Source: Gilvibacter sp. (lineage in GTDB: Bacteria; Bacteroidota; Bacteroidia; Flavobacteriales; Flavobacteriaceae). Taken from it: a stretch of DNA of 64,000 bases. The translations under genes were made by a program, and so were the position numbers. The notes beneath the pieces were generated by a model. The model saw nothing but the letters and a program-made list of their open reading frames with translations. It did no database searches and was not told the DNA's origin. The stretch lies in assembly GCA_965277295.1 (NCBI GenBank), contig OZ255720.1, forward strand, positions 215,376 through 279,375, written 5' to 3'. Shown one piece after another: positions 29,816 to 62,042 of this stretch. Each line of letters opens with the position of its first letter. The stretch's first letter is position 1.

Positions 29816-30921
29816 AGCTCCAACATGTTTTGTATACTCTGGTCGAATTTATCTAAGGTATACCCCCTTGACCATTCGGCTGCATTTTCCGACATTTGCT
29901 GTAAAGTATCAGGTTGCTTTAATGCGGCATCAAGTTGTTGAGCATCTGTAGATAAATCAAGTAAAAGACCACGTTTACCACGATCTAGCATCCAAGGCAC
30001 GCAGGAAATTAAGGTCGCCATTGGAATACAGCCCCAAAACATGGCTTCTGCAACAGCCTTTGGCCAACCTTCTGATTTAGAAGGTAATATTAAAAAGTGC
30101 GCCTTTTTATAAGCTTCTTTTACCACAGCTTTAGGTTGGTTGCCCAAAAGGCGTACATAGCTAGCACAGTGCTGTTGTGATAGCTGCATTTCTAGCGCTT
30201 CTCGCATAACCCCATCGCCGTAAAAGTCAAGTTTAATAGCTATTCCCATCTCGTGTAATTGCTTTATTAAATTCAATGCATAAAGCGGTCTTTTTCCGGG
30301 ACTTAAACTGCCAACAAATAAAACCGATATGGCTGCGGAATAATCTCGTTTTACTATAGGTTCAATTTCACTCTTGGTATAAGAGGCAGTAAAAAATGGG
30401 ACTATGTTTCTAGACTGATTAGGCCAATCTCCATAAACCAACACCTTTATTTTTCTAGTTAAAAAACTATTACTTAGCAACCATTTTTGAAACTTATAAC
30501 TAATTGGTTGTCTTGCATTTGGATCCCAGTTTCCCGCATATTTAGCCGTTTTTGGAATCCATGGAAACAAAATTTGCATATAACATGCCAGTAAACTGGT
30601 ATTACCTGGACAGCGCACATGAATATGATCTGCTTTTGCCATAGCGACAAGTAACTTTATTTTAGTCACCGCAGTCCCCCAAATAGATTTTACGAACCCT
30701 ATCGGAGAGCCAAAATGCAATGGGGGTACACTAATTACGTGTAAGTCTTGTCTTTTAAATGCAGCTGTTAATAGCGGTTTGTTATATATAGTTGGCGCTA
30801 AAATGGTAATTTTTTTGGGCTGCTCAAACCAAAGATCTAATTCGGCAACCATAGGTGCGTAGGCACAAATTTCCTGATTAGAAGTTAAAATAGGCGCTGT
30901 GCTTACTACTAGTAGATTCAT
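29812..30921 (-). CDS. GT4 glycosyltransferase
   Basis: PSKSEGWPKAVAEAM. Confidence 0.9.
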   Translation of the reverse strand: MNLLVVSTAPILTSNQEICAYAPMVAELDLWFEQPKKITILAPTIYNKPLLTAAFKRQDLHVISVPPLHFGSPIGFVKSIWGTAVTKIKLLVAMAKADHIHVRCPGNTSLLACYMQILFPWIPKTAKYAGNWDPNARQPISYKFQKWLLSNSFLTRKIKVLVYGDWPNQSRNIVPFFTASYTKSEIEPIVKRDYSAAISVLFVGSLSPGKRPLYALNLIKQLHEMGIAIKLDFYGDGVMREALEMQLSQQHCASYVRLLGNQPKAVVKEAYKKAHFLILPSKSEGWPKAVAEAMFWGCIPMATLISCVPWMLDRGKRGLLLDLSTDAQQLDAALKQPDTLQQMSENAAEWSRGYTLDKFDQSIQNMLEL

Positions 30922-31469
30922 AATATATAATCGCTAGAATCGTTATCGCTTACTTTTTGTGCAGGAACACCTACTACAGTTGTTCCTGGAGCTACATTAT
31001 TAGTAACTAAAGAGCAGGCACCTATTACAGCATTATCGCCTATAGTTATTTTACCAGCCACAACAGCATTTGCGCCCAAATAAACACGATCTCCAATTAC
31101 AGGTACTCCACGGGAGTCACCACGACCGCTAACGCCAATTGTAACTCCTTGCGAAATATTACAATCCGAACCAATTACTGCATTGGCATTCACTATTATC
31201 CCTCCAAAGTGCCCAATATAAAATCCAGGACCAATTTGTGCAGCATACGGTAAAGAAATTCCAGTAAAAACTTCTATCCATTTTTGCCCAAATAGGCCAA
31301 AAAATAATAGAATGCGCTTAAAAATACGTGGAATTTTAGCATTGTAAATTGCATTATTTGTTCGGTAGACACTTAAGGCCCACAAACCTTGTTGGGTAAA
31401 CAGCAGTATTAAACTACTCTTTTTAGAATAGCGTTTGTACTTTTTAATATCGGCCTTAAAATGCCCCAT
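30918..31469 (-). CDS. Hexapeptide-repeat acetyltransferase (WcaB/CysE-like, probably glycan O-acetyltransferase)
   Basis: IG.G.YIGH.GGI, P.IGD.V..GANA, IG..SLV, VG.PA. Confidence 0.85.
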   Translation of the reverse strand: MGHFKADIKKYKRYSKKSSLILLFTQQGLWALSVYRTNNAIYNAKIPRIFKRILLFFGLFGQKWIEVFTGISLPYAAQIGPGFYIGHFGGIIVNANAVIGSDCNISQGVTIGVSGRGDSRGVPVIGDRVYLGANAVVAGKITIGDNAVIGACSLVTNNVAPGTTVVGVPAQKVSDNDSSDYIL

Positions 31470-31477
31470 AAACTTAA

Positions 31478-32614
31478 TTAAAGTGACCTGTAAAAATCTA
31501 AATTTTGTGCAACAATCTTATCTAAATCATACTTTGCAATAACATCTTTTCTAGCCCGCTTTCCCATTGCATTTGCCTCTTGCTCGTTTTCTATTATCCA
31601 TAGTATTTGTTTTGCGATATCTTCTGGATTGTACACATCGCATAGCAATCCATTATCGCCGTGAGTTATTGTTTCTGGACCTGGTCCGTATTTAGAAAAC
31701 ACAACAGGGCGTTCTAGTAGCATGGCTTCTAAAGATACTAAACCTTGAGTTTCCATATGCGACGGAAACACACAAACCGCAGCCTGAGCGTAAAGCATAT
31801 CTAATTCTGCCCGAGGAACAACTCCCTTAAAACTAACCTGAGTAAAATACTGGGCATCCAAATCTTTTTTAATTTGTTCTATATAAGAACGCCCATCGGG
31901 ATAAAACCAGTCCCTTCCATAAATATCTAAACATACCTCTGGATATTTTTGGCGAACAATTTTAAATCCTTGAATTAATTGACGCACTCCCTTTTTCTCG
32001 CAGACCGTACCAGCAAATAATATGCTATTTGCATCTACGTGAACCTTTGGTACTGTCACCCCTGTATTCATGGGATAGTTAATAATAGTAAGTTTAGCAT
32101 TACCATAACTTAAATACTTAGCCGTATGCTCCTTAACGTAATTAGTAACTGCTATAAAGCCGTCTGCTTTTTTAAACGATCGCTTTTCTAAGAACCCCTT
32201 ACGCCAATTAATTCCGCGTTGCTCTGCTTCCGAAAAAAAATGATGTCCGCCATGCAAACGAATAACTCGTTTTGCAGTGTGAGATCCAGATAATAAAGCC
32301 AAGCCAAGTTCAGAAGCTTCTATTATGTTAATTGGATGTTCTTTATTAAGTTGCTTTAATTTTTTATTGATTTGCCTGGCATTATGCATAAAATTTGGCA
32401 GTTTACTTTTATTTTTTGCCAACCTATACAAGCCAACGCCTTGATCTTCTAAAACCTGTTCTTGCAAATCGGTACCCGGCCCAACCACGCTTACTTTATG
32501 GCCACGACTAACCAATGCTCGCCCAAAGGTTTGAATAAAAGTTCCTACGCCACCCGATGCCCAAACTGGGTATTCCGGAGATAAAAAAACAATATGTAAT
32601 GCGCTATTACTCAT
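31478..32614 (-). CDS. GT4 glycosyltransferase
   Basis: GGVGT N-terminus; FPSHMETQGLVSLEAM. Confidence 0.9.
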   Translation of the reverse strand: MSNSALHIVFLSPEYPVWASGGVGTFIQTFGRALVSRGHKVSVVGPGTDLQEQVLEDQGVGLYRLAKNKSKLPNFMHNARQINKKLKQLNKEHPINIIEASELGLALLSGSHTAKRVIRLHGGHHFFSEAEQRGINWRKGFLEKRSFKKADGFIAVTNYVKEHTAKYLSYGNAKLTIINYPMNTGVTVPKVHVDANSILFAGTVCEKKGVRQLIQGFKIVRQKYPEVCLDIYGRDWFYPDGRSYIEQIKKDLDAQYFTQVSFKGVVPRAELDMLYAQAAVCVFPSHMETQGLVSLEAMLLERPVVFSKYGPGPETITHGDNGLLCDVYNPEDIAKQILWIIENEQEANAMGKRARKDVIAKYDLDKIVAQNLDFYRSL

Positions 32615-32619
32615 CTAAA

Positions 32620-33993
32620 CTATTTTGTTGTTAATGCCTTATAAATGGCCTCTGAACTGTCTTTTTGTGCTACAATAATACTAAACCAATCGCTAACCGT
32701 GGTGCCCATATTGGCCTCTAATTTAGTTAACAATTGCGGTACATCGTCCTTTGAATTCCACCATAAAACAACTTCTTTATTTGGCATACTTCTAAAGTGC
32801 TGAAAATTATAAATACTATCTACAGACCAAGGAGCCGCATTGGGCTGGTCGTAATTTATATAAATACACGGTTTGTTAAACATACCAAAATCGAAAGCCA
32901 TGGTAGAACCTACGTTTACAACCGCATCGCAATAATACGCCACGCTTACCAACAAACTAACATCCTGCTGTGTTGGATAAACCGCCGACCAAATTGCCGA
33001 ATTAAAATTCCAAAGTGGTGGCGCTTCTTTTATTAATTCAGGAAAGGTATTTATAACAGCTTGATACCTTCCCGAAACATCTACAGGACATCGTCTAAAT
33101 AAAATTTGATACTCCTGCTGTTTCCCAGCAGCAATAATTCCCTGCGCTAAATCGCGTAAATATTCAGGGTCTTTAGGCGATGTATATTCGTCGTCACCAG
33201 AAAAACAAATAATCTTTCGCTGGGGATCCAAACTATAGCTGTTGTAGAATGTCTCTTTGGAAATAATAACTTTGGGGTCAGAATAGACCTCGAACTGTGG
33301 TGTGCCAGTAATAACTACCTGCTCTGGTTTAATTTCTGGGTAAAACTCGATTAATTCGGCTTGCATATAATTAGACCAAACCAAATAATAATCGGCCTTT
33401 AAAGCCAAACGCGCCTTGGGCACATTGTCCCAAGAATAAATAACAGTATAGGTTTTAATTCCTAAATCTTTCGCGGCAGCAAAAATAATTGCCGCCTTTA
33501 ATGCTCGTTGATGCGTGCAAAATAGCACATCGATATCTAAATCTTTTAGTTGATTGGTTACTTGAGTGTAAAATGGGTTTTTTCGCAGCTGTTTATTATA
33601 GGCCTGTTCTAGTTTTTGAATTTTGCCGTAAGCACTATAAAAATTAGACATTAGGGTAATTAGCCCGTAAAAAACTTTAAGTTTTATTCCCGAACGCTTT
33701 TTATGCCACAGATATAAAATAGTGTTGTTGTTAGTTATTTTGGCATTGTGTTTTAACCTGCACAAATGAATTAACTCTCGCAGGTACTTTTCTTTTATTG
33801 GTTCTGCATACTACGGAATTTCTAAGGTTGACTCCAGATTAATTTGGGCCTCGATTGCGCCTATTGTATCGTCGTCAAAATTATGGTACAAATGTAATTT
33901 GGCCGTTCTATTTTTAAAAACTCGCGAGTACAAATAATTGCGAATCCCAACCCCGTCAGGGACAAAAAGTAAGACGTTTTTTTTATAAGCCAT
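32620..33993 (-). pseudogene. Orphan GT-B glycosyltransferase (candidate sialyltransferase) with an in-frame TAG at 33811-33813
   Basis: ORFs 33811..34002 and 32620..33765 share one frame; decoding through gives LEIP*YAEPIKEKYLRELIHLCRLK with one stop only (codon 61 from ATG 33993); HQR, SWDN, TGTPQFE, GSTM motifs. Confidence 0.8.
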
Positions 33994-35110
33994 TAAAGTC
34001 AATAAACTGTTTTTGATGATCTATTTGCCAGAGTGATTCTTCTTCTAAGCTTTTAATAAACTTCTGATTTGCATCTCCCTGACCAAACTGTGTTTGTTGA
34101 TTATCCAATTCTGGTAAGATTCCATTTAGTGCGGCAGTTATGTCTTGAGCATTGTAATCTATATTTATAATATGATCGTGTTGTGCTCTGTTGCGTTGTC
34201 TAGAACCAATATCTATAGTTGGAACCCCATAATAGGGAGCTTCTCGAATTCCAGCGCTCGAATTGCCAATAATAAAATCGGCCCGCTTTAACAGGGTTAA
34301 AAAATATTCAAAACGAATAGACGGAAACACTCTAAAATTAGGCAATTCCTTTAGCGATTCGTACTCCTTTAAAATAGCGCCACTGCCTAAATCATTATTG
34401 GGGTAGATTACAACAAAATTTCTAGAACTTGCCTTTAGACCAGCAACAAATTTGGTGGCATGAGATTGCATTTGCTTAGCCTCTGTTGTTACGGGATGAA
34501 ACAAAACAACCCCGTAATTATCAAAATCTATTTGATAATGTTCACGCACAGCCTTAATATTAGGTAAGTTTTTAGAAAACATAATATCGATGTCTGGCGA
34601 ACCAATAGTATAAATTGACTCAGAAAGCTCGCCCATTTGCTCCAAACGCTGTTTTGCTAATGCATTCGAAACATAGTGAATATGGCTCATTTTACTGGTA
34701 GAATGCCGTATTAGTTCGTCTATAGTACCAGACACTTCGCCACCTTCTATATGCGCGACCAGAATATTATTTAACGACCCTACAATAGCTCCAGCTAAGG
34801 CTTCTACTCGATCTCCATGCACAACAATCATATCTGGATTTACCGTTTTTATATATTGCGAAAAACCACTTATGGTCTTCGCCAAGGTTAAATCCATGGT
34901 AGCTTCGCTGGTGTGGTTATTAAAGGGGTGCACGTTTTTAAAATTACAGCGCTCAACCTCTATTAGCGTGTACCCATAAGTTTCTAACAAGTGCATGCCC
35001 GTCACAAACAAATGCGCATTAAAGTTAGGATGCTCCTCTAGTATTTGTATTAACGATTTAATTTTACCAAAATCGGCTCGAGTTCCAGTAAGAAATACAA
35101 TATTCTTCAT
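33983..35110 (-). CDS. neuC: UDP-GlcNAc 2-epimerase (hydrolysing)
   Basis: TGTRADFG, HGDRVE, HIEGGE.SGT.DE.IRH, FHPVTTE, GNSSAGIREA. Confidence 0.95.
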   Translation of the reverse strand: MKNIVFLTGTRADFGKIKSLIQILEEHPNFNAHLFVTGMHLLETYGYTLIEVERCNFKNVHPFNNHTSEATMDLTLAKTISGFSQYIKTVNPDMIVVHGDRVEALAGAIVGSLNNILVAHIEGGEVSGTIDELIRHSTSKMSHIHYVSNALAKQRLEQMGELSESIYTIGSPDIDIMFSKNLPNIKAVREHYQIDFDNYGVVLFHPVTTEAKQMQSHATKFVAGLKASSRNFVVIYPNNDLGSGAILKEYESLKELPNFRVFPSIRFEYFLTLLKRADFIIGNSSAGIREAPYYGVPTIDIGSRQRNRAQHDHIINIDYNAQDITAALNGILPELDNQQTQFGQGDANQKFIKSLEEESLWQIDHQKQFIDFNGL

Positions 35111-35120
35111 AGTATAGGCC

Positions 35121-36164
35121 TTATTGTTGGACATCCCCTTTTTGCAATTGTACGTCGATTGGTAAATCTTTGGTGGCTTTTTTGCCTAGTAAATCGTTGT
35201 AATGTTCGGCTAAAATGTCACCGGTACCTGGGCGTTTCACCCAAATATTTTGCTTGGTAAATGGTTGGCCTTTTTTAATGGGAGCAATGGTACATACTGT
35301 TGCAAAAGCAAAGTCAATAGTAACCTGCTCTTCTTTTGCCGGTTCTTTTGTACCTCCACGCATTTGCCAAATTTCTTTGGAATTTATTATTAATTCTGCG
35401 CAGGCCTGCTGGTCCATACTACACACAATATCTGGACCTGTTCTGCCCATATGATCTGTAAAATGTCGCTCTAAAATAGATGCTCCTAAAGCGACTGCGC
35501 CTAGACAAGCATTGTTATTTAAGGTATGATCGGATAAACCAAACACGCGATCCGGAAAGGCTTCGTGCATTTGAGTCATCGCGCCAAATCTAACCAAATG
35601 TATAGGTGTTGGATACAAATTGGTGGTATGTAAAATGGCTACGGGTATCTTATGGGCATCGAATATAGCTAAGGCCTTGGCAATACTTTGAATAGTATTC
35701 ATCCCAGTACTCATAATAATTGGTTTCCCAAACGATGCCAAGTGCTCTAAAAGCGGATAATTATTACATTCCCCAGAACCAATTTTGTACGCCGCTACAT
35801 TAAAGGAGTTTAATCGGTCGGCGGCCGCTCTAGAAAAAGGCGTAGAAATAAAGATCATTCCCTGAGCTTCTACATAATTTTTTAGCGCTAGTTCGTCTTC
35901 TCTGTTAAGCGCACAGCGTTCCATTATATGATAAATAGAAACATTGGCATTGCCAGGAATTACTTTTTTGGCAGCTCCACTCATTTCGTCTTCCACAATA
36001 TGAGTTTGGTGTTTAACCACTTCGGCTCCTGCTTGCTTTGCTGCATCTACCATTTGTTTTGCCACGGCTAACGAACCTTCGTGATTAATGCCAATTTCGG
36101 CAATAACCAGTGGCGGATAATCCGAGCCAACCATACGCCCTGCTATATTTATAGATGGATTCAT
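35121..36164 (-). CDS. neuB: N-acetylneuraminate synthase
   Basis: [36 protein letters not shown]-terminal SAF/AFP domain. Confidence 0.96.
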
Positions 36165-36835
36165 AGTTTGGTAGTTTCTAAAATATATTTCGCATAATTT
36201 AAATCGTCCAGAGAATCTATATCGACTCCCGCATAAGGATGATCCACAATAAAAGGTATATTCGAATCTCCTAAAATAACCCCTTGTGCAATTAATTTGG
36301 CCTTGGTAATATAGAGCAAGCCATTTTCGCTGTACAACGGCTCCATATCTTGACTGCGTTGCCCCATACTATAATTAAAAGGGACAAAGCGATTATTTAC
36401 AATTTTACCCAGTTTGTCGGTATTTCTGGATACGGTCATTAGACTATCGGCATTGTGTTTGTTAAAAGCTGTAAGGGCATCTTGTAATAAATTTTTAGGG
36501 CGTAACGGATTTGTAGCCTGTAGTAAAATTACATTGTCAAAATTTTCTTCTAAACTACTAACAACATACTGTAAAACTGCAGCCGTCGTGGCAGTGTCTG
36601 TAGCCAGTTCAGCGGGACGCATTTGTACATGGGCTCCGGCAGCTGTAGCAATCTTAGCCAAGTCCTCGCTGTCTGTAGAAACCACTACTTTATTAATTAA
36701 CCGCGAATTACTTAAGGCGTAATCTATGCTGTGCACCACAAGAGGCTTCCCATTAAAAGCAATACCATTTTTGTTAGTTATTCGCTTGGAACCGCCTCTT
36801 ACAGGTATTATACAAATGTTATTCGTTGTGGTCAA
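36161..36835 (-). CDS. neuA: CMP-N-acetylneuraminic acid synthetase (acylneuraminate cytidylyltransferase)
   Basis: [37 protein letters not shown]. Confidence 0.93.
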
Positions 36836-43561: not shown

Positions 43562-44439
43562 GTGTTATAAATGCAAGAGCAGTCCAAAACAGTACCGCAT
43601 TTTATTCTGGTTGGAGCCATGAAGGCAGGAACAACAAGCCTTAGGTTTCATTTAAACAATCACCCCCATATTCATTTACCCCAGCGAGAGCTCAACTTTT
43701 TTAACAACCAAAAAAACTTTAATCGAGCTTTAGCATGGTATCAAGAACAAATTGCAAAAGACGCTAAAGATTCGGCGACATTGTTTGGCGAAAAATCTCC
43801 AGCCTATACTTTAGAAGAGTTTGTTCCCAAAAGAATGCATGAGCTTTTGCCCGACGCTAAATTAATCTGGGTATTACGCAATCCTGTAGATAGAACCTAT
43901 TCTAATTATTTACACGAATTAAAGCTAGGGCTGGAAAATCTAAGTTTTAACCAAGCCTTAAATGCCGAACCTACACGGGCAGTTAAAACCATTAAATACG
44001 CCTATACAACAAACAGTATGTACAGCCAGCAAATCGAGCGTTTTTTGGAGTTCTACCCGAAGTCCCAATGTTTTTTTGTGCTGTTCGACGATTTAATTAA
44101 GCCCTATGGCAGCACTCATGTTTTAAACGATTTATTTAACTTTTTAGGAGTCGATACCAGTACATTTAACTACGTAAACGGAGTCAGAAATAAAACAACA
44201 TTGCCTAGGTATCCCAAGTTACTTTTTTATGCCAATAGATGGGGTTTAACTAAATCTTGGAAAATTAAAAAGGCGTTAAACACCTTTAATTTTAAGAATC
44301 AAAAGCCGGGTTATCCTAAATTAACGCAAACACAGCGAGCGGAATTAGCAAAAAAATTCGAACCACATAACGCAAAACTAAGCGCGCTAATAGGCAAAGA
44401 TTTAAGCGGTTGGAATAGGTAGTTTAGTTGGTGTTATAA
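43562..44439. repeat. 9-bp direct repeat GTGTTATAA flanking the inverted sulfotransferase
   Basis: Copies at 43562-43570 (abutting ATG) and 44431-44439. Confidence 0.5.
43571..44422 (+). CDS. PAPS-dependent sulfotransferase (heparan-sulfate 3-OST/NDST-like motifs)
   Basis: 5'-PSB VGAMKAGTTSL, GEKSPAY, 3'-PB LRNPVDRTYS. Confidence 0.88.
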   Translation: MQEQSKTVPHFILVGAMKAGTTSLRFHLNNHPHIHLPQRELNFFNNQKNFNRALAWYQEQIAKDAKDSATLFGEKSPAYTLEEFVPKRMHELLPDAKLIWVLRNPVDRTYSNYLHELKLGLENLSFNQALNAEPTRAVKTIKYAYTTNSMYSQQIERFLEFYPKSQCFFVLFDDLIKPYGSTHVLNDLFNFLGVDTSTFNYVNGVRNKTTLPRYPKLLFYANRWGLTKSWKIKKALNTFNFKNQKPGYPKLTQTQRAELAKKFEPHNAKLSALIGKDLSGWNR

Positions 44440-48476: not shown

Positions 48477-49385
48477 TTACTTAAATAATCGATTAAAAAA
48501 GGAATTTTTTGCTTTTTTGGGATTGGATGGTGCTGCAATTTCGAACATAAACTTAAAATCTTGATTGTGCGAAACTAAACTATTTCTATATTCTGCTAAC
48601 ATGGGCTGTAGCAAGATATCATCTCCTTTTGCAATTCTTTTTATGGTCGCATTGGTAAAATGAATAAATACGACTGGGTATATATTATTTATCAAGACCT
48701 CTCCATTGGCAACAGTGCGTTCACATTCTACTGTATTCCAATTGGAAACATTACAACCTTTGTGTTGTATTTGTGCAACATCGTCGTGGAAATATACTGG
48801 CATTAAATTTAAAAACACCTGATCTACATAATAACCATCTTCCTTACTCATCTTGTAGGAACATGCTTTTAACCACCAATCTAAAACGTGAATAGCGCTA
48901 GAAGTGCATCCAAAAAAACCAGCATTGTAAATTCCTCCTATAAATAACAAATCAAAATTTACAGCATCAATTTCCGGTTTACTGGAACGCCAATGCGGTG
49001 TAAGAATAACTTTATTTTTGTCTAAGAGCTCAAACAAAAATGTAGGATCCTGATAAAAATATAAATCTGGATCTAAAAAAAGTGCCTTATTACATCCCTT
49101 TTCTTCTAAGAGGTATTTAAGCCACAATGGCTTTAATGCCCAGCGCAGGTTGCTTTCTTTGTCGGTTTCATACTTTTGAATGAGTCCATAATCTTCAGGG
49201 TAACGTTCTTTAATAGTTTTAAGGGCATGAACCACTATGTTTTTATAAGACAACGGGGTTTCAATTTGATCTACCACCAATACATGAAAGCTTGCATCAG
49301 TATTAAATCGCTCTAAAGAATCATAAAGCGCTTTGATATAGAAAAAATAATTTGCCGTAATTATGGTGCAAAAGGTCTTTCTCAT
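48477..49385 (-). CDS. Putative GT8-like glycosyltransferase
   Basis: CTIIT.NY, LDPD DxD, YNAGF, DQ..LNL.P. Confidence 0.65.
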   Translation of the reverse strand: MRKTFCTIITANYFFYIKALYDSLERFNTDASFHVLVVDQIETPLSYKNIVVHALKTIKERYPEDYGLIQKYETDKESNLRWALKPLWLKYLLEEKGCNKALFLDPDLYFYQDPTFLFELLDKNKVILTPHWRSSKPEIDAVNFDLLFIGGIYNAGFFGCTSSAIHVLDWWLKACSYKMSKEDGYYVDQVFLNLMPVYFHDDVAQIQHKGCNVSNWNTVECERTVANGEVLINNIYPVVFIHFTNATIKRIAKGDDILLQPMLAEYRNSLVSHNQDFKFMFEIAAPSNPKKAKNSFFNRLFK

Positions 49386-51965: not shown

Positions 51966-53015
51966 CTAATATTGATAATATGTGTATGGCAAACTAATTC
52001 CTGTTTTTCTTGCCAACCGTTCGTTTGACTCAATAAACATATTTTTTAGAAACGTTAAGATTTCATTCGGATAAGAAAACCTAATCTCTTGTTCATTGTT
52101 TTTAAGCTGTTTCGCCTTAGTAATATTTTCATTTTTGATTCTCGCATCTTTGTAAAGCAAGCTTTCTTCAATAGAAATATTCAACTCATCACAAAAATAG
52201 TCTTTAAGACGATGAAAGTTAGTTCCAGTGCTAAAAGATTGATTTCCTAATCCATGTACATGAGTTTTATTAAGCTCCCGCATATTATATAATTCGGTCA
52301 GGGATAAGGGTTTGTTATAATGGTCTAAATCCAATTCATAATCATCTAAACCTAGAACCTGAGATAACTTGTTTGTGAGTAAGCAGGTGTTATTTTCATA
52401 ACGCAACTTACCAGATTCATCTCGATAATTTTCAATACAAATAATTTCAATATTTTCGGCACCAAAAAGATTGGAATAAATATTATAAAGATAGTCGTAT
52501 TGAAAATCAAAAATAAAATTTCGATCTCGAGAATAGTAAATAAAGTCTAAGAAATCATTAAATGTTCCGTAATAGCCAATTTTTATAGCTTCTTTGTACA
52601 AAGACTCTATTAGGCTTCTTTGATTTCGAATTATCAAAACGATTTTTGTGCCCAATCCAAAGGCGTTAAATACTCTTTTGGCTTTTTCTTCGATTTCTAT
52701 TTGATCCGTTGTAAATGTAAAAGAAAGTAGCTCTAACGAAATACCACAAACTCTTTTGGTTTGATTAGTTTCAAACTTCTCGAACTCACTATTAAATGCT
52801 CTAGATATACCAAGTTTTGCTTTTTGGTAAGTGAAATTTTTACTGTATTGAAAATGATTTTCACAGGCTGATGCAATTTTAGGGTTTATGTAATCCACAT
52901 TTGAACCTACTCCAACCCCTAAATGATGAATTTGAGGATGCTTACTAAAGAAGTCTCGCTGCAGACTAGTAGACAAGTTTTTCGGCATTCCAATATGAAT
53001 ATATTTTGTCTTCAT
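51966..53015 (-). CDS. Divergent sulfotransferase-fold protein
   Basis: HIGMPK..STSLQ (5'-PSB-like), S.E.LS, IIRNQ....ESLY (3'-PB-like). Confidence 0.6.
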   Translation of the reverse strand: MKTKYIHIGMPKNLSTSLQRDFFSKHPQIHHLGVGVGSNVDYINPKIASACENHFQYSKNFTYQKAKLGISRAFNSEFEKFETNQTKRVCGISLELLSFTFTTDQIEIEEKAKRVFNAFGLGTKIVLIIRNQRSLIESLYKEAIKIGYYGTFNDFLDFIYYSRDRNFIFDFQYDYLYNIYSNLFGAENIEIICIENYRDESGKLRYENNTCLLTNKLSQVLGLDDYELDLDHYNKPLSLTELYNMRELNKTHVHGLGNQSFSTGTNFHRLKDYFCDELNISIEESLLYKDARIKNENITKAKQLKNNEQEIRFSYPNEILTFLKNMFIESNERLARKTGISLPYTYYQY

Positions 53016-56423: not shown

Positions 56424-57479
56424 TCATTCAAAGTTCAGATTCGATTTTAACAGGAATTCCTCAACAAGTTTTTTTGTTAAAAGTTGAGCTCCTTTGTCAT
56501 TTAAATGACCAACATCAAAAGAATATTCCAGTTCATAGAACTCTGGATATTTCACACTACTGGAAAGATCAATGATATGAGCACTTGGAATTTGATCTGC
56601 TAGTTGATATAAGCCCTTGCTTCCATATCGAGGTAGAATTAAAAAAATCAAGTGAATACCTCGCTGCTTAGAGGTACCGATTAATTTATTTAATTCACTT
56701 AGTAAATCTGCATCATAATACTCACCAGAATTTCTTAAAAACATTGAGCGATTCGCTCTTGCTTTTAAAAGAGTAGAGTCTTGAATAACGGAATTATGGT
56801 TATTGATTAAATTTCTTCTTATAGTACTATCCTCAACTTTTTCTAATTCATCTTCTAGTGAATAAAACCCATCCAACCTAGGACCTAAATACACGCTGTT
56901 TAATTGGTATTTTCCAAGTAGTTTACTTCCAAAATAATCTTTTCTAAATATTTTATCGAAATACGATTTGGAATAACCCGAAATCCCGTATAATTTTTGC
57001 TCCAAACTTAGACTATCTCTATTCAAATAAGACTTCGTTATTAATTTCATATCACTTAGGTTTAACCAATAATACGAGCGCTTTTGATGCAATAATTTGG
57101 GAGCGGTATTCGTAATTGTAGTTAATTCAAAAAAAGCATATTTTACATCTTTACTTAAGTCCGATTTAAGATAATTTCGGTACAAATATTGGGATTGGGG
57201 GCTAAAAGTGGCTGGAGCACCCAAATTAAAAGAGGAAATTTTTTTTTGAGTAATCATGTTTACTTCACGGTCAAATACCTCTGGAGTTATTTGCCTGTAA
57301 ACCCGGCTAGAACCGAAAAACAATACGTTTGGTTGTAATTCATTGTTACCCTGCAAAAATTCAACCTTCGAGGCAAACCACTGATTACCCCAATAATATG
57401 GGGCAAAACTATTCATAACTTGTTTGATAAAAACTACAAGAAAGAACAGTACAGAAACTCGCTTTAGGAGCTTTAACAT
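56424..57479 (-). CDS. Membrane-anchored SGNH-like (DltD/AlgJ-type) protein
   Basis: N-terminal TM; FGSSR nucleophile block; C-terminal FD.GHLN.KGA (DxxH). Confidence 0.6.
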   Translation of the reverse strand: MLKLLKRVSVLFFLVVFIKQVMNSFAPYYWGNQWFASKVEFLQGNNELQPNVLFFGSSRVYRQITPEVFDREVNMITQKKISSFNLGAPATFSPQSQYLYRNYLKSDLSKDVKYAFFELTTITNTAPKLLHQKRSYYWLNLSDMKLITKSYLNRDSLSLEQKLYGISGYSKSYFDKIFRKDYFGSKLLGKYQLNSVYLGPRLDGFYSLEDELEKVEDSTIRRNLINNHNSVIQDSTLLKARANRSMFLRNSGEYYDADLLSELNKLIGTSKQRGIHLIFLILPRYGSKGLYQLADQIPSAHIIDLSSSVKYPEFYELEYSFDVGHLNDKGAQLLTKKLVEEFLLKSNLNFE

Positions 57480-57550: not shown

Positions 57551-58186
57551 CTAAATATCACTAGATCTATTTTCCCAGGGAAAGTTATCGTATTTGGGTT
57601 CTTTATTTAAAAACTCACAAAGTCTTTTGTATGCTCCTTCTTTAGCAACATTTAAAACTAGTAAATTATTCTTGTTCTTAAAGTAATCTAATACCGATGC
57701 ATTATGGGTGTTGTAGTAGTTTCGCAATTTACGTTCGTTGTAGGGATCTTCGGTGCGTTGAATTCCAAAAACTAACTCACGTACTTGTGCCACATATCCT
57801 TTATAACGATAGGTAGCGTTATCTAAATCCTCCCAGGTTGGCTTGTTCTGGTTTTTAGAAAACAACTTGGTGTGAAAATTAACCAATGAGTTGTACCAAA
57901 CCGTGTCGTTATCTCTAATTGTTAGAATAAATTTGGCGTTGCTAAAAGCTTGGTCTAAAGCAATAAAAGTATGTTGAAAGCAAAACGGTGCATCTTGAAA
58001 GGCGTCGGCGGTTTTGCAGAATTTTATAATTGGCTTAAAATTCCTAGAGGCGTAATCATTAATAAACAACTCACCTTGCTTTTGGCTCCCTAATTTATAA
58101 CCAAAATCGTTAAGGGCTTTTTCTATCGAGGTTGTTCCGGTTTTACCAGACCCAACACAGAATATTTTTTCTTTCTTACCCAACAT
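57551..58186 (-). CDS. Sulfotransferase (Sulfotransfer_4-like)
   Basis: CVG.GKTGTTS, D.P, F.NAKFILT.R....W..S, HN..V.DYF, LC.FL. Confidence 0.8.
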   Translation of the reverse strand: MLGKKEKIFCVGSGKTGTTSIEKALNDFGYKLGSQKQGELFINDYASRNFKPIIKFCKTADAFQDAPFCFQHTFIALDQAFSNAKFILTIRDNDTVWYNSLVNFHTKLFSKNQNKPTWEDLDNATYRYKGYVAQVRELVFGIQRTEDPYNERKLRNYYNTHNASVLDYFKNKNNLLVLNVAKEGAYKRLCEFLNKEPKYDNFPWENRSSDI

Positions 58187-58192
58187 TTAAAA

Positions 58193-59398
58193 TCAATTTA
58201 AATCGGTTAACGTTGTTTCTAGGTAAAAGGGCGGCCAAATTTCTTCTTCGTGTATTACTTGAAAATTTAATACTCCGTTTACTCTTAATAAGGGTTCTCT
58301 AGAATTGGGTTTTACCACACTAATATTAACCGAATAAATACCCTTAGACAACATTAATTGTTCGTGTTCCATACAAAACTGAATCTTATTATCTTTAATT
58401 TTAAGGCCATCTTGAATTTTATTAGGTTCTAACATAGCCACCGGACGTTGTTCTTTGTCATAAATTGAAATATGGAAAGAAGGAATATCTTGCTCCTTTT
58501 TTAATTCAAATACTAACCGTAATTTAAATTTACCCTTCCATTGTATTTGTGGCTGTTCGTTTTGGCTATTAACCCCTAACAATTCTGCTCTTGTTAAAGC
58601 AATTGTATTGTCATCGAAAATTATATTCTGTTCGTTATTCGTAAATCGCTGATAATACAAATCAATGGCTTTTGATACATTAGTTCCTTGAAATGCATCC
58701 GCTCCTCTTTCCATTAATAGAACATGCGTACAAATCCTAGAAACCATAGGCATGGAATGCGACACAAACACAATGGCGGTATTGGGTAAGATGTTATCTA
58801 TGGTTTTAAAACACTTTAAAACAAAACCCAAATCGCCAACAGCCAATACTTCGTCTATTATTAAAATGTCGGGCTCCATTTGTGCAGCAACAGCAAAGCC
58901 CAAGCGCACCTTCATCCCCGAGCTATAATGTTGTACTGGCATATCTATAAACTCTTCGAGTTCTGCAAATTCAATAATCTGAGTAAGCTTAGTGTCTATT
59001 TCTTCACGAGTAAAGCCTAGTACAGCACCATTATTATAAATATTTTCGCGCCCTGTGAGGATATTATTAAATCCTGCACCTAGTTCTATTAAGGCTCCCA
59101 CACGCCCTTTCATGGTAATACTGCCAACATCTGGACGTATTAAACCATTAAGCATTTTTAAAAGTGTAGATTTTCCCGCACCGTTATGCCCTATTAACCC
59201 TAGGCATTCACCACGACGCAATTCAAAATTTATATCCTTTACGGCCCAGAATTCTTTAGGACGTAACATATCTGACTTATTATTGCCAAAAACATTGGCA
59301 AATAAATCCTGTAATCCGTATTTAAGTCCCGTTTTTAGGTCTTTACAAAACTTCTTAGAGAGGTTTTCTACTTTTATTAAAACTTCCTGCTCTTCCAT
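58193..59398 (-). CDS. wzt: Polysaccharide ABC transporter ATPase with C-terminal carbohydrate-binding extension
   Basis: GHNGAGKS, ELGAGF, YSSGM..RLGF, DEVLAVGD, SH; about 150-aa Wzt_C-like tail. Confidence 0.93.
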   Translation of the reverse strand: MEEQEVLIKVENLSKKFCKDLKTGLKYGLQDLFANVFGNNKSDMLRPKEFWAVKDINFELRRGECLGLIGHNGAGKSTLLKMLNGLIRPDVGSITMKGRVGALIELGAGFNNILTGRENIYNNGAVLGFTREEIDTKLTQIIEFAELEEFIDMPVQHYSSGMKVRLGFAVAAQMEPDILIIDEVLAVGDLGFVLKCFKTIDNILPNTAIVFVSHSMPMVSRICTHVLLMERGADAFQGTNVSKAIDLYYQRFTNNEQNIIFDDNTIALTRAELLGVNSQNEQPQIQWKGKFKLRLVFELKKEQDIPSFHISIYDKEQRPVAMLEPNKIQDGLKIKDNKIQFCMEHEQLMLSKGIYSVNISVVKPNSREPLLRVNGVLNFQVIHEEEIWPPFYLETTLTDLN

Positions 59399-59400
59399 AA

Positions 59401-60246
59401 TTATGCGCTACTACGTTCAACAATTATTGGAATAGAAACTCTATAAAATACTAAAGCAATTAAAAATATTGGAATACACGATAGCAAAACAATAAGATAA
59501 TACTGTAAGTGTTCGGTTGGATTGCCAAGTATGGTGCCTCTAGCCATAAGTATTAAAGGACTAAATGGATTGTATTCCATAATGGTCTTCATTATACCTT
59601 CGCTTGGAACAACATATACCACAGGAGTTATATACATTAAAAAGCGCAATGCAGTCATAATTAGCTTAGATACGTCATTATATAAAAGCCCAATGGGCGT
59701 AAGAATTAATCCCAACGAAAACCCAAAGAAAACGGCTCCCAACATAATAATTGGGAACAGCCATATACTGTGATGATAATCTACACCAAAAATAAAAAGT
59801 AAGATTATTAATAATAGTATTTTGGGTATGGCGTTAAATAATAATTTGTAAATACCAGAAAGTAACAAAGCTTCTTTAGGAAAATTAATCTTAGAGATTA
59901 TACTTTTAGCACTACTGGTACTGGTTTGGGGCGAATTAATTGCCCCTACTATTATCGACCAGATTAATGTCCCCGAAAACGCATAGACAGGATACGGAAT
60001 TCCAGTATCTGTTAACTGAATTGTTCCTGTCGCTTGTAAAAACACCCAGACTAAGGCTGTAGTAACCGGAGTTATAAATGCCCAAACAATGCCCAAATAA
60101 GATTGCCGGTATTGCGCCTTGATGTCGCGAATAGCAATTTGCTTAGCCAAAAACGTACTTCCAGCAAGGTCGCGCAAGCTCGCTCCAAGCACCTTTAAAA
60201 TACTGGTATTACCGCGATTAGAATAAACTTTGGTTTGGTTGTTCAT
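59401..60246 (-). CDS. wzm: Polysaccharide ABC transporter permease
   Basis: RDIK.QYRQS.LG..WA, K.NFP.E, Y.TP..Y, YNP. Confidence 0.93.
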   Translation of the reverse strand: MNNQTKVYSNRGNTSILKVLGASLRDLAGSTFLAKQIAIRDIKAQYRQSYLGIVWAFITPVTTALVWVFLQATGTIQLTDTGIPYPVYAFSGTLIWSIIVGAINSPQTSTSSAKSIISKINFPKEALLLSGIYKLLFNAIPKILLLIILLFIFGVDYHHSIWLFPIIMLGAVFFGFSLGLILTPIGLLYNDVSKLIMTALRFLMYITPVVYVVPSEGIMKTIMEYNPFSPLILMARGTILGNPTEHLQYYLIVLLSCIPIFLIALVFYRVSIPIIVERSSA

Positions 60247-60391: not shown

Positions 60392-61270
60392 TTACACATT
60401 ATTATTAACCAGTTGTTTACAAGCGTTTATTAGCGACGCCGATATGGAATAGTCCATTTTTCTGGCAAACAATGCCGTAGATTGTTTTATGGCTATAAAA
60501 TCAGTAGTATCTAGAAATGCAGGCAAACTACCATGGCGTTCCTGCCAAACAATAAAACGCTTATTGTCTTGAATCATGCTTCCTGCTAAAGTAGAATTCA
60601 TTAAAATAGTCTGAAAATAAAACTCTTCACTGCAAAAACTGTGTTTTAATCTTCTAAACAAGGCCGGGGTGTTAATATAAAAATTTACAACTTCCTGTAC
60701 AGCAGCACGATGCAAACTCCAATAGGTAGAACCTCCGTAAAGTGGTGGTAAATTTTTACTATATGCCCGTTTAAAACCTAATTTTTTTTGAATTGATAAT
60801 GCTTTTTGAATCCAACGCATAGACGATTTTGCATTCAACAAGTCGTAAAAATTATAGTAATCTATTCTGTCCATTCCCCCATTGTTCCAGCAACTAGCTG
60901 GCATGGTAAAATATTCTAAATAGCTCTTTCCATTTAGTTTAGAGAAGTGCTCTATAAAATAATTGTTAGTCTTAATGGGCATATCCTGACCAGTAATCAT
61001 ATGAAAGTATTCATATTCTTTGCTTTTCAGCGCCGTTTTACATAACAGTAAAATGCTTTTTAAGTGATTTCTCCCACCCCAGTTTACGTTATATTGCTGC
61101 CCAATAAAAACAATGTTTTTAACCTTAGCTAATTTTAGCTTTAACTGGGGCGATAAGGTTGATTTTTTGTCGATATGAATAAACAAACCAAACCTTGAAT
61201 CAAAACACGCCGCCAAGTCTAGCAGCTGTTCCAAATCCTTATAGGCGGTTATTAATATGGCGTGTTTCAT
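60392..61270 (-). CDS. GT14 (core-2/I-branching beta-1,6-GlcNAc transferase family) glycosyltransferase
   Basis: HAILI.AYK, IHID.K, V.WGG, TGQD.P, GS..WSL, EE..FQT, W, D, FARK. Confidence 0.88.
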   Translation of the reverse strand: MKHAILITAYKDLEQLLDLAACFDSRFGLFIHIDKKSTLSPQLKLKLAKVKNIVFIGQQYNVNWGGRNHLKSILLLCKTALKSKEYEYFHMITGQDMPIKTNNYFIEHFSKLNGKSYLEYFTMPASCWNNGGMDRIDYYNFYDLLNAKSSMRWIQKALSIQKKLGFKRAYSKNLPPLYGGSTYWSLHRAAVQEVVNFYINTPALFRRLKHSFCSEEFYFQTILMNSTLAGSMIQDNKRFIVWQERHGSLPAFLDTTDFIAIKQSTALFARKMDYSISASLINACKQLVNNNV

Positions 61271-61274
61271 AATA

Positions 61275-62042
61275 CTAATTAGCAAATTTGCGCTTTAAAC
61301 GCCCCCATTTATAAGCAAGGTAGGGATACTTTAGTCTAAAATTAAGCTTTCCCTGTTTGCCAAACAAAAGGGCTAAATCGGCAAAAGGAGCTATAGTCCA
61401 TTTACGTTTTTCTACAAAATTGTAATCTAAATACGCTAAATCTTTTTTGTAAAACCAAGCAACCATTGACTTTCTTTTTCTAGTGTAGAAAAATGAATAA
61501 TGCGGCAGCTTTTTGTTGTTTACATTGCTGTGCTGGCTAAAAAAATTAGCGGGTAAATTAAGGTCTTTTATAACCTTAGTAAATCCCTGTTGAATGTCTT
61601 CCATTCTAATAATACAATCGTAATCTATTGGGTTGCCGTCTAAGTGCAAATAGTCGTATTGCAGGGTTAAATGATCTCCCATATAGTCGCTATTAAGGGC
61701 ATTTAACCGCGCTTTAAAAGGGCCTGCCTTTTGTAGAAAATTAGAAAACGAACCGTAAACTCCAGTATTGAGCATAACCCAAGGATAATCTGAATAGGCT
61801 CTGGCAAACGGATTTCTTACAATAATAAATTTATAATACGAATCCCACTGGGGTTTTGTAACTAAACCAGATGCTAGCAGCTGTTTTGGCGTTGCGTGCT
61901 GCATGTGCAATTTAAACTCGCTGTTCCAACCATAGCCCATTACAGGATCCAATTGATTGGTCATGCCGAATGCTTCTTCTACAGTTGTACCTGCACATTT
62001 AGAAATATGTATAAAAATGCATTTATGTTTATGACTAACCAT
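61275..62042 (-). CDS. Sulfotransferase family 2 (CHST/HNK-1ST-like)
   Basis: FIHI.KCAGTT, VRNP..R..S.Y, H...Q, YD..IR.E, Y..D...L.Y. Confidence 0.85.
   Translation of the reverse strand: MVSHKHKCIFIHISKCAGTTVEEAFGMTNQLDPVMGYGWNSEFKLHMQHATPKQLLASGLVTKPQWDSYYKFIIVRNPFARAYSDYPWVMLNTGVYGSFSNFLQKAGPFKARLNALNSDYMGDHLTLQYDYLHLDGNPIDYDCIIRMEDIQQGFTKVIKDLNLPANFFSQHSNVNNKKLPHYSFFYTRKRKSMVAWFYKKDLAYLDYNFVEKRKWTIAPFADLALLFGKQGKLNFRLKYPYLAYKWGRLKRKFAN

Follow-up and report, generated by a model that had tools for sequence, protein, structure and literature searches.

Which enzyme attaches the nine-carbon sugar that a surface polysaccharide locus of Gilvibacter sp. appears equipped to activate? The stretch of DNA analysed here, hereafter the window, comprises 64,000 nucleotides (assembly GCA_965277295.1, contig OZ255720.1, positions 215,376 to 279,375) and carries neuC, neuB and a neuA-like gene, the three genes of a putative route to a cytidine monophosphate (CMP)-activated nonulosonate; of all steps in bacterial nonulosonate biology, the transferases responsible for attaching such sialic-acid-like sugars are the least known (PMC5420450; PMC7439481). 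A first-pass annotation of the sequence had reported a full pathway to CMP-N-acetylneuraminic acid (CMP-Neu5Ac) and no gene with recognisable motifs of the GT38, GT42, GT52 or GT80 sialyltransferases in the window, and had proposed from context that the gene overlapping the neuC stop codon, the target of this study, is the most likely consumer of the CMP-sugar. Our analysis supports this proposal. The target probably encodes a CMP-nonulosonate transferase of an uncharacterised, motif-divergent family within the TagF-like superfamily of glycosyltransferases with the GT-B fold, and it appears to have been inactivated here. We describe the anatomy, fold, family, gene linkage and remote homology of the target, and from association and remote homology we infer its donor, activity, acceptor, catalytic residues and loss of function.

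The target is read in a single minus-strand frame from an ATG at 33993-33991 to a TAA at 32622-32620, interrupted only by an in-frame amber stop, codon 61. The first nucleotides of the target coincide with the last 11 of the neuC open reading frame (ORF), and all of the motifs quoted for it previously are present: PDGVGIRN (residues 12-19), HQR (161-163), SWDN (187-190), TGTPQFE (229-235) and GSTM (362-365). Upstream on the same strand lie neuC, neuB and the neuA-like gene, and apart from the last of these no cytidylyltransferase turned up among the scanned ORFs of the polysaccharide locus (24995-63793). The genome holds one NeuB (its only PF03102 gene) and one member of the target family. Other candidates for the transfer step were not found: PF07388 (GT38), PF05159 (KpsC/S) and PF01973 (Maf) had no match genome-wide, and neither did PF07922 (GT52), PF06002 (GT42) and PF11477 (GT80), three models that were also empty in the control genomes, so that these searches had no positive control. 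The earlier statement about the window thus extends to the genome, in which no canonical sialyltransferase that could account for sialylation was found. The literature, CAZy not covered, yielded no described Flavobacteriaceae enzyme of this kind.

Indications of function come from the company that the gene keeps. Close relatives, about 456 amino acids long, number more than 2,100 in a word-indexed search, and an exhaustive hidden Markov model (HMM) search gathered 3,246 clusters at 50% identity (E ≤ 1e-3); identity is highest to proteins of Gilvibacter, at 57-62%, and the names given to the family in databases are 'hypothetical', 'MGDG synthase' (monogalactosyldiacylglycerol synthase), 'UDP-glycosyltransferase' (uridine diphosphate, UDP) and 'CDP-glycerol glycerophosphotransferase' (cytidine diphosphate, CDP). 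In a genus-level sample of Flavobacteriaceae, one genome per genus and 151 in all, the family is carried by 53 genomes, always in single copy. PF03102 NeuB is present in 52 of these 53 carriers as opposed to 29 of the 98 non-carriers (Fisher p = 2.7e-18), and in 48 of the carriers it lies on the same contig less than 10 kilobases (kb) from the target homologue. We also assembled a set of 80 named loci, in 67 of which the upstream flank reaches 8 kb or more. Of these 67, 61 have homologues of all three of NeuA, NeuB and NeuC; one of the three is missing in four more (in three, the upstream flank ends first), and NeuA alone is found only at L049 and L071 among the named loci. There were eight apparent exceptions, and in six of those genomes NeuB lies elsewhere or across a contig break. 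The co-occurrence with neu genes that was proposed as a check is therefore borne out. Downstream, a GT4 homologue (37-67% identity) is present in 79 of the 80 loci, which is every locus extending past the target gene, and within 1.6 kb in 73; the target and this GT4 look like a conserved two-enzyme module.

The linkage has survived turnover of its own components. The neuCBA module adjoining the target family exists in two versions that are about 30% identical to each other, one with identities of about 65, 79 and 52% to the NeuC, NeuB and NeuA of the window and the other with about 30, 30 and 33%; both are three-gene NeuC/NeuB/NeuA sets with no aminotransferase. When module type is mapped onto a maximum-likelihood tree built from the target protein, a tree in agreement with taxonomy, it changes 16 times, and at least nine of these changes are forced by well-supported branches. 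Because the linkage outlasted repeated replacement of neuCBA, it suggests functional dependence rather than inherited gene order. Tracking of module type by the tree, which would have indicated co-evolution with the donor and told the target apart from the GT4, was looked for and not seen. Exchange of the module is seen even within Gilvibacter, Patiriisocius and Flavobacterium, with transferase and GT4 unmoved (compare L001 7192-9996 with L003 7149-9998).

Distant homologues, recovered by the family profile at E about 1e-41 to 1e-65, also sit beside nonulosonate genes, with NeuB, Epimerase_2 and CTP_transf_3 alongside P0271, P0219 and P0258, and with CTP_transf_3 and a KpsC/S-like gene flanking P0256. 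Some distant members are tandem two-module proteins of about 900-1,090 amino acids, namely P0219 (L102 8001-11273), P0256 (L105 1730-4480) and P0225; the neighbours of P0256 are the KpsC/S-like gene, the cytidylyltransferase and a radical S-adenosylmethionine enzyme, NeuB not being in view.

Two further observations concern the diversity of these loci. In many Flavobacterium loci, neuC and the target are separated by a 477-residue DltB/MBOAT-like membrane acyltransferase and a 293-residue protein with no family match (L022 7673-9987; L049 7671-9985), a pair that may be an O-acylation system for the sialic-acid-like sugar. About ten sampled genera, including G060, G077, G090, G092, G094, G109 and G114, have a NeuB of the same subtype (PF03102 scores of about 212-242 bits) and no member of the target family; Flavobacteriaceae probably contain at least one further, unrecognised type of nonulosonate transferase.

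The predicted structure agrees with the fold guessed in the first-pass annotation. An AlphaFold2 model built on 46 homologues (predicted local distance difference test, pLDDT, 90.3; predicted template modelling score, pTM, 0.88) shows the two Rossmann-like domains of a GT-B fold, with a helical insertion of about 90 residues (about 66-152) in the N-domain. This domain contains HQR and the superfamily-invariant SWDN (window 33424-33435), while the C-domain contains CFSGDD, RRCP at residues 300-303 (window 33085-33096) and NVGSTMAFDF at 360-369 (GSTM, window 32899-32910); RRCP occupies the place of the 'HP' motif of relatives. Across 102 full-length representatives, S187, W188, D189, N190, G230, Q233, R300, P303, N360, S363 and H399 are invariant or nearly so, each of the four SWDN residues being retained in 101-102 of the 102, and position 364 is T or S and position 368 D or E. 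Residue 302, the column of the HP histidine, is cysteine in the subfamily of the window and C, S, A, V, H or N among the representatives.

No curated Pfam or NCBIfam threshold is passed by the target, and in this sense its description as an orphan holds. It scores 17.9 bits against Pfam Glyco_transf_4, under the cut-off of 28.5, and has no match to Glycos_transf_1, so the pair PF13439 and PF00534 that defines GT4 is not present and the target fits no GT4 pattern, as had been stated. Against PF04464 Glyphos_transf it scores 14.2 bits under a gathering cut-off of 22.1; weak PF04464 matches recur in 37 of 46 family members over the motif region 355-383 (best E 1.8e-5), all of them below the cut-off. 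Its match to NCBIfam NF046086 (43.2 bits, E 2.8e-11; cut-off 200) covers residues 199-317 only. No match was obtained to PF02350 Epimerase_2 at E ≤ 1 or to PF07388, PF06002, PF07922 and PF11477, the models for GT38, GT42, GT52 and GT80. The family HMM found nothing among all PDB sequences at E ≤ 10, and the target has no close solved relative. Searched with Foldseek against the PDB, the full model returned about 30 UDP-N-acetylglucosamine (UDP-GlcNAc) 2-epimerases as top matches (TM about 0.5-0.55, identity 8-12%, Foldseek E about 1e-11 to 1e-12), followed by generic GT-B enzymes. The C-domain modelled alone, which takes out effects of domain orientation, matched epimerases, then TagF (rank 5; 15-17% identity, the highest of the matches), SenB and a heptosyltransferase.

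Orphan status does not extend to profile-profile comparison, which links the target to the nonulosonate transferases of Tannerella forsythia and to TagF/TarL. NF046086 takes its name from BFO_1060, the homologue in strain 92A2 of T. forsythia Tanf_01245 / TFUB4_00887. When the latter genes are deleted, the O-glycan loses its terminal pseudaminic acid (Pse) or legionaminic acid (Leg) derivative but the cells retain the CMP-sugar pool, and re-insertion of the native gene brings the sugar back (PMC5420450). A divergent wing of the target family scores E about 1e-41 to 1e-55 with the target (A2) profile. In BLASTP alignments with BFO_1060-type proteins its members are 20-24% identical across some 290 residues, and hhalign matches the wing to an alignment of L087, L088 and L089 with a probability of 99.2% (E 1.7e-19) over 272 columns spanning linker and C-domain; L087 is a true NF046086 member at 221 bits. 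A still stronger hhalign result obtained with the mixed alignment A4 (E 1.5e-58) was discounted, two of its rows, L095 and L097, being true members of the target family. Compared with solved structures, the broader superfamily profile matches TarL (8VA1, E 4.8e-4) in linker and C-domain and a diacylglycerol glucosyltransferase (9WDE, E 3.2e-5) in the N-domain. These alignments place the target family, the T. forsythia Pse/Leg transferases and TagF/TarL in what appears to be one TagF-like GT-B superfamily, and the predicted C-domain layout of the target family is that of enzymes releasing a cytidine nucleotide, the canonical sialyltransferase motifs being absent.

The resemblance to the T. forsythia transferases is one of setting as well as sequence. 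Both are Bacteroidota proteins of about 445-460 amino acids with a predicted (TagB-like) GT-B fold, encoded beside a CMP-nonulosonate locus, and in the architecture of linker and C-domain both share D-x-Y-x-x-W ... I-x-G-T-x-x-F-D/E-x-Y, R-x-x-P and an S-T loop. They differ in that the histidine of HP, reported in the C-domain of the T. forsythia enzymes (PMC5420450), is a cysteine in the target, that the N-domains cannot be aligned, and that the target adjoins a NeuC/NeuB/NeuA (Neu5Ac-type) route and not one to Pse or Leg; the divergent wing and the BFO_1060-type proteins have xRxHP at this position. The knock-out evidence belongs to the T. forsythia enzymes, whereas the target family is known from sequences and models. 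With TagF/TarL (PF04464; PDB 3L7K, 8VA1) the target has in common the GT-B fold, the C-domain 'S-S/T ... F-D/E' loop, the R/K-x-H-P position and, as proposed, a donor with a cytidine-nucleotide leaving group; it is, however, a single-domain protein that lacks the membrane-binding region of TagF, and its PF04464 score is sub-threshold. With the GT38, GT52 and GT80 sialyltransferases it would share metal-independent transfer of a nonulosonate from a CMP-sugar and the C-domain S-S/T loop, but it has neither their Pfam matches nor their canonical motifs, and none of their structures is among the Foldseek top 50.

Taken together, a working model for the target emerges. The gene encodes, or recently encoded, what would be a cytoplasmic GT-B glycosyltransferase whose likely donor is a CMP-activated nine-carbon sugar from the adjacent NeuC-NeuB-NeuA, most probably CMP-Neu5Ac or a close analogue, and whose acceptor would be the lipid-linked repeat unit under assembly for the surface polysaccharide of the surrounding cluster. 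The conserved neighbouring GT4 would act in the step directly before or after. Recognition of the cytidine nucleotide by the C-domain is predicted to involve R300-x-x-P303, the N-x-G-S-T loop (360-364) and D368/H399, and the catalytic base is most likely D189 of the N-domain, the aspartate in the invariant SWDN. Bacterial GT-B sialyltransferases carry the motifs D/E-D/E-G and HP (Freiberger et al. 2007, as cited in PMC7439481). We lean towards regarding the target family as a new family of bacterial sialic-acid/nonulosonate transferases in which the SWDN aspartate and R-x-x-P / N-x-G-S-T replace these motifs. On this reading the family occurs widely among Flavobacteriaceae of marine and fresh waters and in other Bacteroidota, the window holding a broken copy of a founding member.

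Several findings weigh against this assignment. Neither a D/E-D/E-G tripeptide nor an HP dipeptide occurs in the target sequence, which at best offers SWDN, SGDD and RRCP, so that the canonical GT-B sialyltransferase motifs are missing, the HP histidine being a cysteine. The suggested comparison with GT-B sialyl- and Kdo (3-deoxy-D-manno-oct-2-ulosonic acid) transferases also failed to single one out: none is among the Foldseek top 50 for the full model or the C-domain, both of which resemble generic GT-B enzymes at TM about 0.5-0.57. The strong link to BFO_1060 runs through intermediates, two of which are picked up by the BFO_1060 model itself, and L087 and the target family show only weak direct similarity (hhalign 78% over 60 residues). 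In close relatives the GT4 partner is linked equally tightly, and co-occurrence cannot assign the handling of the nonulosonate to one of the two. The genomes of L071 and L080 and sampled genus G112 have the gene without any NeuB. Finally, of the full CMP-Neu5Ac pathway claimed earlier, NeuC, NeuB and NeuA are real at the family level, and for the exact sugar the scores are less decisive: the NeuB score (389 bits) falls slightly below the TIGR03569 equivalog cut-off of 399.65, and the best match of NeuA is a sub-threshold one to PseF. A Neu5Ac-type product appears more likely than legionaminic acid, because the three-gene neu modules of related loci have no aminotransferase and the distal aminotransferase and acetyltransferase genes of the locus (DesI-like, WbqC, VioB/NeuD-like) resemble a deoxythymidine diphosphate (dTDP)-4-amino-sugar route; a legionaminic acid pathway is disfavoured on the same grounds.

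The amber codon raises the question of whether the strain makes the enzyme at all. Its column varies among homologues and lies between P60 and Y62, both of them invariant in alignment A1 and at least 90% conserved in the larger alignment A2; in both alignments the window copy keeps all family-invariant residues on either side of the stop. The frame is open in five of five copies from the same genus and in 51 of 52 from other genera. Amber suppression of codon 61 was ruled out, no tRNA with a CUA anticodon being present among the 36 tRNAs of the genome. Mechanical ORF calling shortens the target to 32620-33765 (381 amino acids), and the genome's own gene call is a 343-residue piece (P0001). The stop falls just after strand beta-3 of the N-domain, so any product of a downstream restart would be without the invariant PDGxG loop; with the protein cut after its first three strands, the transferase is probably inactive in this strain. 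Since the invariant columns are kept, the copies of relatives are open and there is no suppressor tRNA, the TAG probably represents a recent nonsense mutation. It might instead be a base-call error in the assembly, in which case the strain would make the full-length enzyme. The intact residues around the stop would fit an error, as would the fact that this tightly packed cluster of about 39 kb shows no other interruption in the ORFs that were listed and scanned (the apparently truncated ugd gene at the window end merely extends beyond the window). However, the source genome is a finished single contig of 3.49 megabases with an estimated completeness of 99.99%, and a single substitution that creates a stop is an atypical assembly error; we regard this explanation as unlikely.

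As to function, the main rival holds that the target is a conventional glycosyltransferase that works on the polysaccharide repeat unit with a UDP- or guanosine diphosphate (GDP)-sugar, for example to build the nonulosonate acceptor or to glycosylate the nonulosonate itself, while another enzyme such as the GT4 uses the CMP-sugar. It gains from the neuCBA linkage that target and GT4 have in common, from the weak N-domain matches to GT4 and GT28 (MGDG synthase), and from best structural neighbours that bind UDP-sugars. Yet the GT4 matches Glycos_transf_1 in textbook fashion (E 1e-31), and users of CMP-sugars are not known from that family; the C-domain motifs and profiles of the target point to the CMP-releasing TagF/TarL and the T. 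forsythia nonulosonate transferases; and distant homologues keep the neuCBA linkage but not always an adjacent GT4. We judge it rather improbable, and continue to favour transfer of the CMP-nonulosonate by the target.

A TagF/TarL-like polyol-phosphate transferase, adding glycerol- or ribitol-phosphate from a CDP-donor to the polysaccharide, would account for the PF04464 matches at a DYSS-like motif, for TagF among the top structural matches of the C-domain and TarL in the broader profile search, and for those database entries named CDP-glycerol glycerophosphotransferase. Every one of the PF04464 scores is under the gathering cut-off, however; the scanned ORFs of the locus included no match to a CDP-glycerol or CDP-ribitol synthesis family (TagD/TarI/TarJ type), and the cytidylyltransferase that always accompanies the gene is NeuA-like, which makes this function very unlikely. 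Scarcely credible is a GT-B-fold sugar-nucleotide enzyme other than a transferase, epimerase- or hydrolase-like and modifying a precursor of the nonulosonate pathway, as the top Foldseek matches to UDP-GlcNAc 2-epimerases (PF02350; PDB 1F6D, 5ENZ, 3DZC) might suggest: although these are the best overall structural matches, the low TM and identity, the lack of a profile match and the extra helical insert of the target make the likeness one of generic GT-B fold, a true NeuC is encoded next door, and the three-gene NeuC/NeuB/NeuA route needs no extra GT-B enzyme.

If the target family does transfer CMP-nonulosonates, a function would be assigned to thousands of proteins labelled 'hypothetical', 'MGDG synthase' or 'CDP-glycerol glycerophosphotransferase'; the functional prediction, made for a very large family, is well supported, although it comes from association and remote homology and the local copy is broken. 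The family would then constitute a new, motif-divergent branch of the CMP-sugar GT-B enzymes and would offer biocatalyst candidates for making sialosides. Judged from the sampled carriers, about one in three Flavobacteriaceae genera would be expected to bear such surface sugars, and sialylated surface glycans would be far commoner in environmental Bacteroidota than appreciated. The window copy itself would be a natural loss-of-function case, with neuCBA intact and the presumed transferase truncated.

Table 1. Positions of the target, its parts and its conserved neighbours in the window
Feature	Position	Strand	Details
Target, candidate nonulosonate transferase gene	32620..33993	-	457 codons including one internal TAG
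In-frame amber TAG, codon 61	33811-33813	- (plus strand 'cta')	Translation
N-terminal Rossmann-like domain, about residues 1-250	33244..33993	-	AlphaFold2 secondary structure
C-terminal nucleotide-binding domain, residues 256-457	32623..33228	-	Domain model pLDDT 86
neuC, hydrolysing UDP-GlcNAc 2-epimerase	33983..35134	-	PF02350; TIGR03568 412 bits (cut-off 236)
neuB, N-acetylneuraminate-type nonulosonate synthase	35121..36164	-	PF03102 + SAF; TIGR03569 389 bits (cut-off 399.65)
neuA-like CMP-nonulosonate synthetase (cytidylyltransferase)	36161..36835	-	PF02348; PseF model 154 bits, under cut-off
Canonical GT4, downstream partner of target	31478..32614	-	Glycos_transf_1, E 1e-31
Hexapeptide O-acetyltransferase (CysE/WcaB/NeuD-like)	30918..31469	-	Often conserved after GT4

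The genes of Table 1 form part of one long minus-strand polysaccharide locus that also encodes an initiating sugar-phosphate transferase, a Wzy-like protein, many GT2 and GT4 enzymes, three sulfotransferases, a 4-amino-sugar branch and an ATP-binding cassette (ABC) exporter, the Wzt-type ATPase of which adjoins a 281-residue ORF without a family match. The hexapeptide O-acetyltransferase that follows the GT4 possibly modifies the glycan. Four minus-strand ORFs of about 280-350 amino acids (48477-49385, 51966-53015, 56424-57479 and 59401-60246) have no Pfam match, and the first three, which were those included in the NCBIfam scan, have no match there either. A homologue of the Core-2/I-branching enzymes (PF02485, E 7e-23), an animal family, is encoded at 60392-61285 on the minus strand and neighbours the exporter ATPase (58193-59398). 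The sulfotransferase-family genes, at 43571-44422 (plus strand; Sulfotransfer_1/3), 57551-58186 (minus; Sulfotransfer_4) and 61275-62042 (minus; Sulfotransfer_2), are of three different kinds, which suggests that the surface polysaccharide is sulfated.

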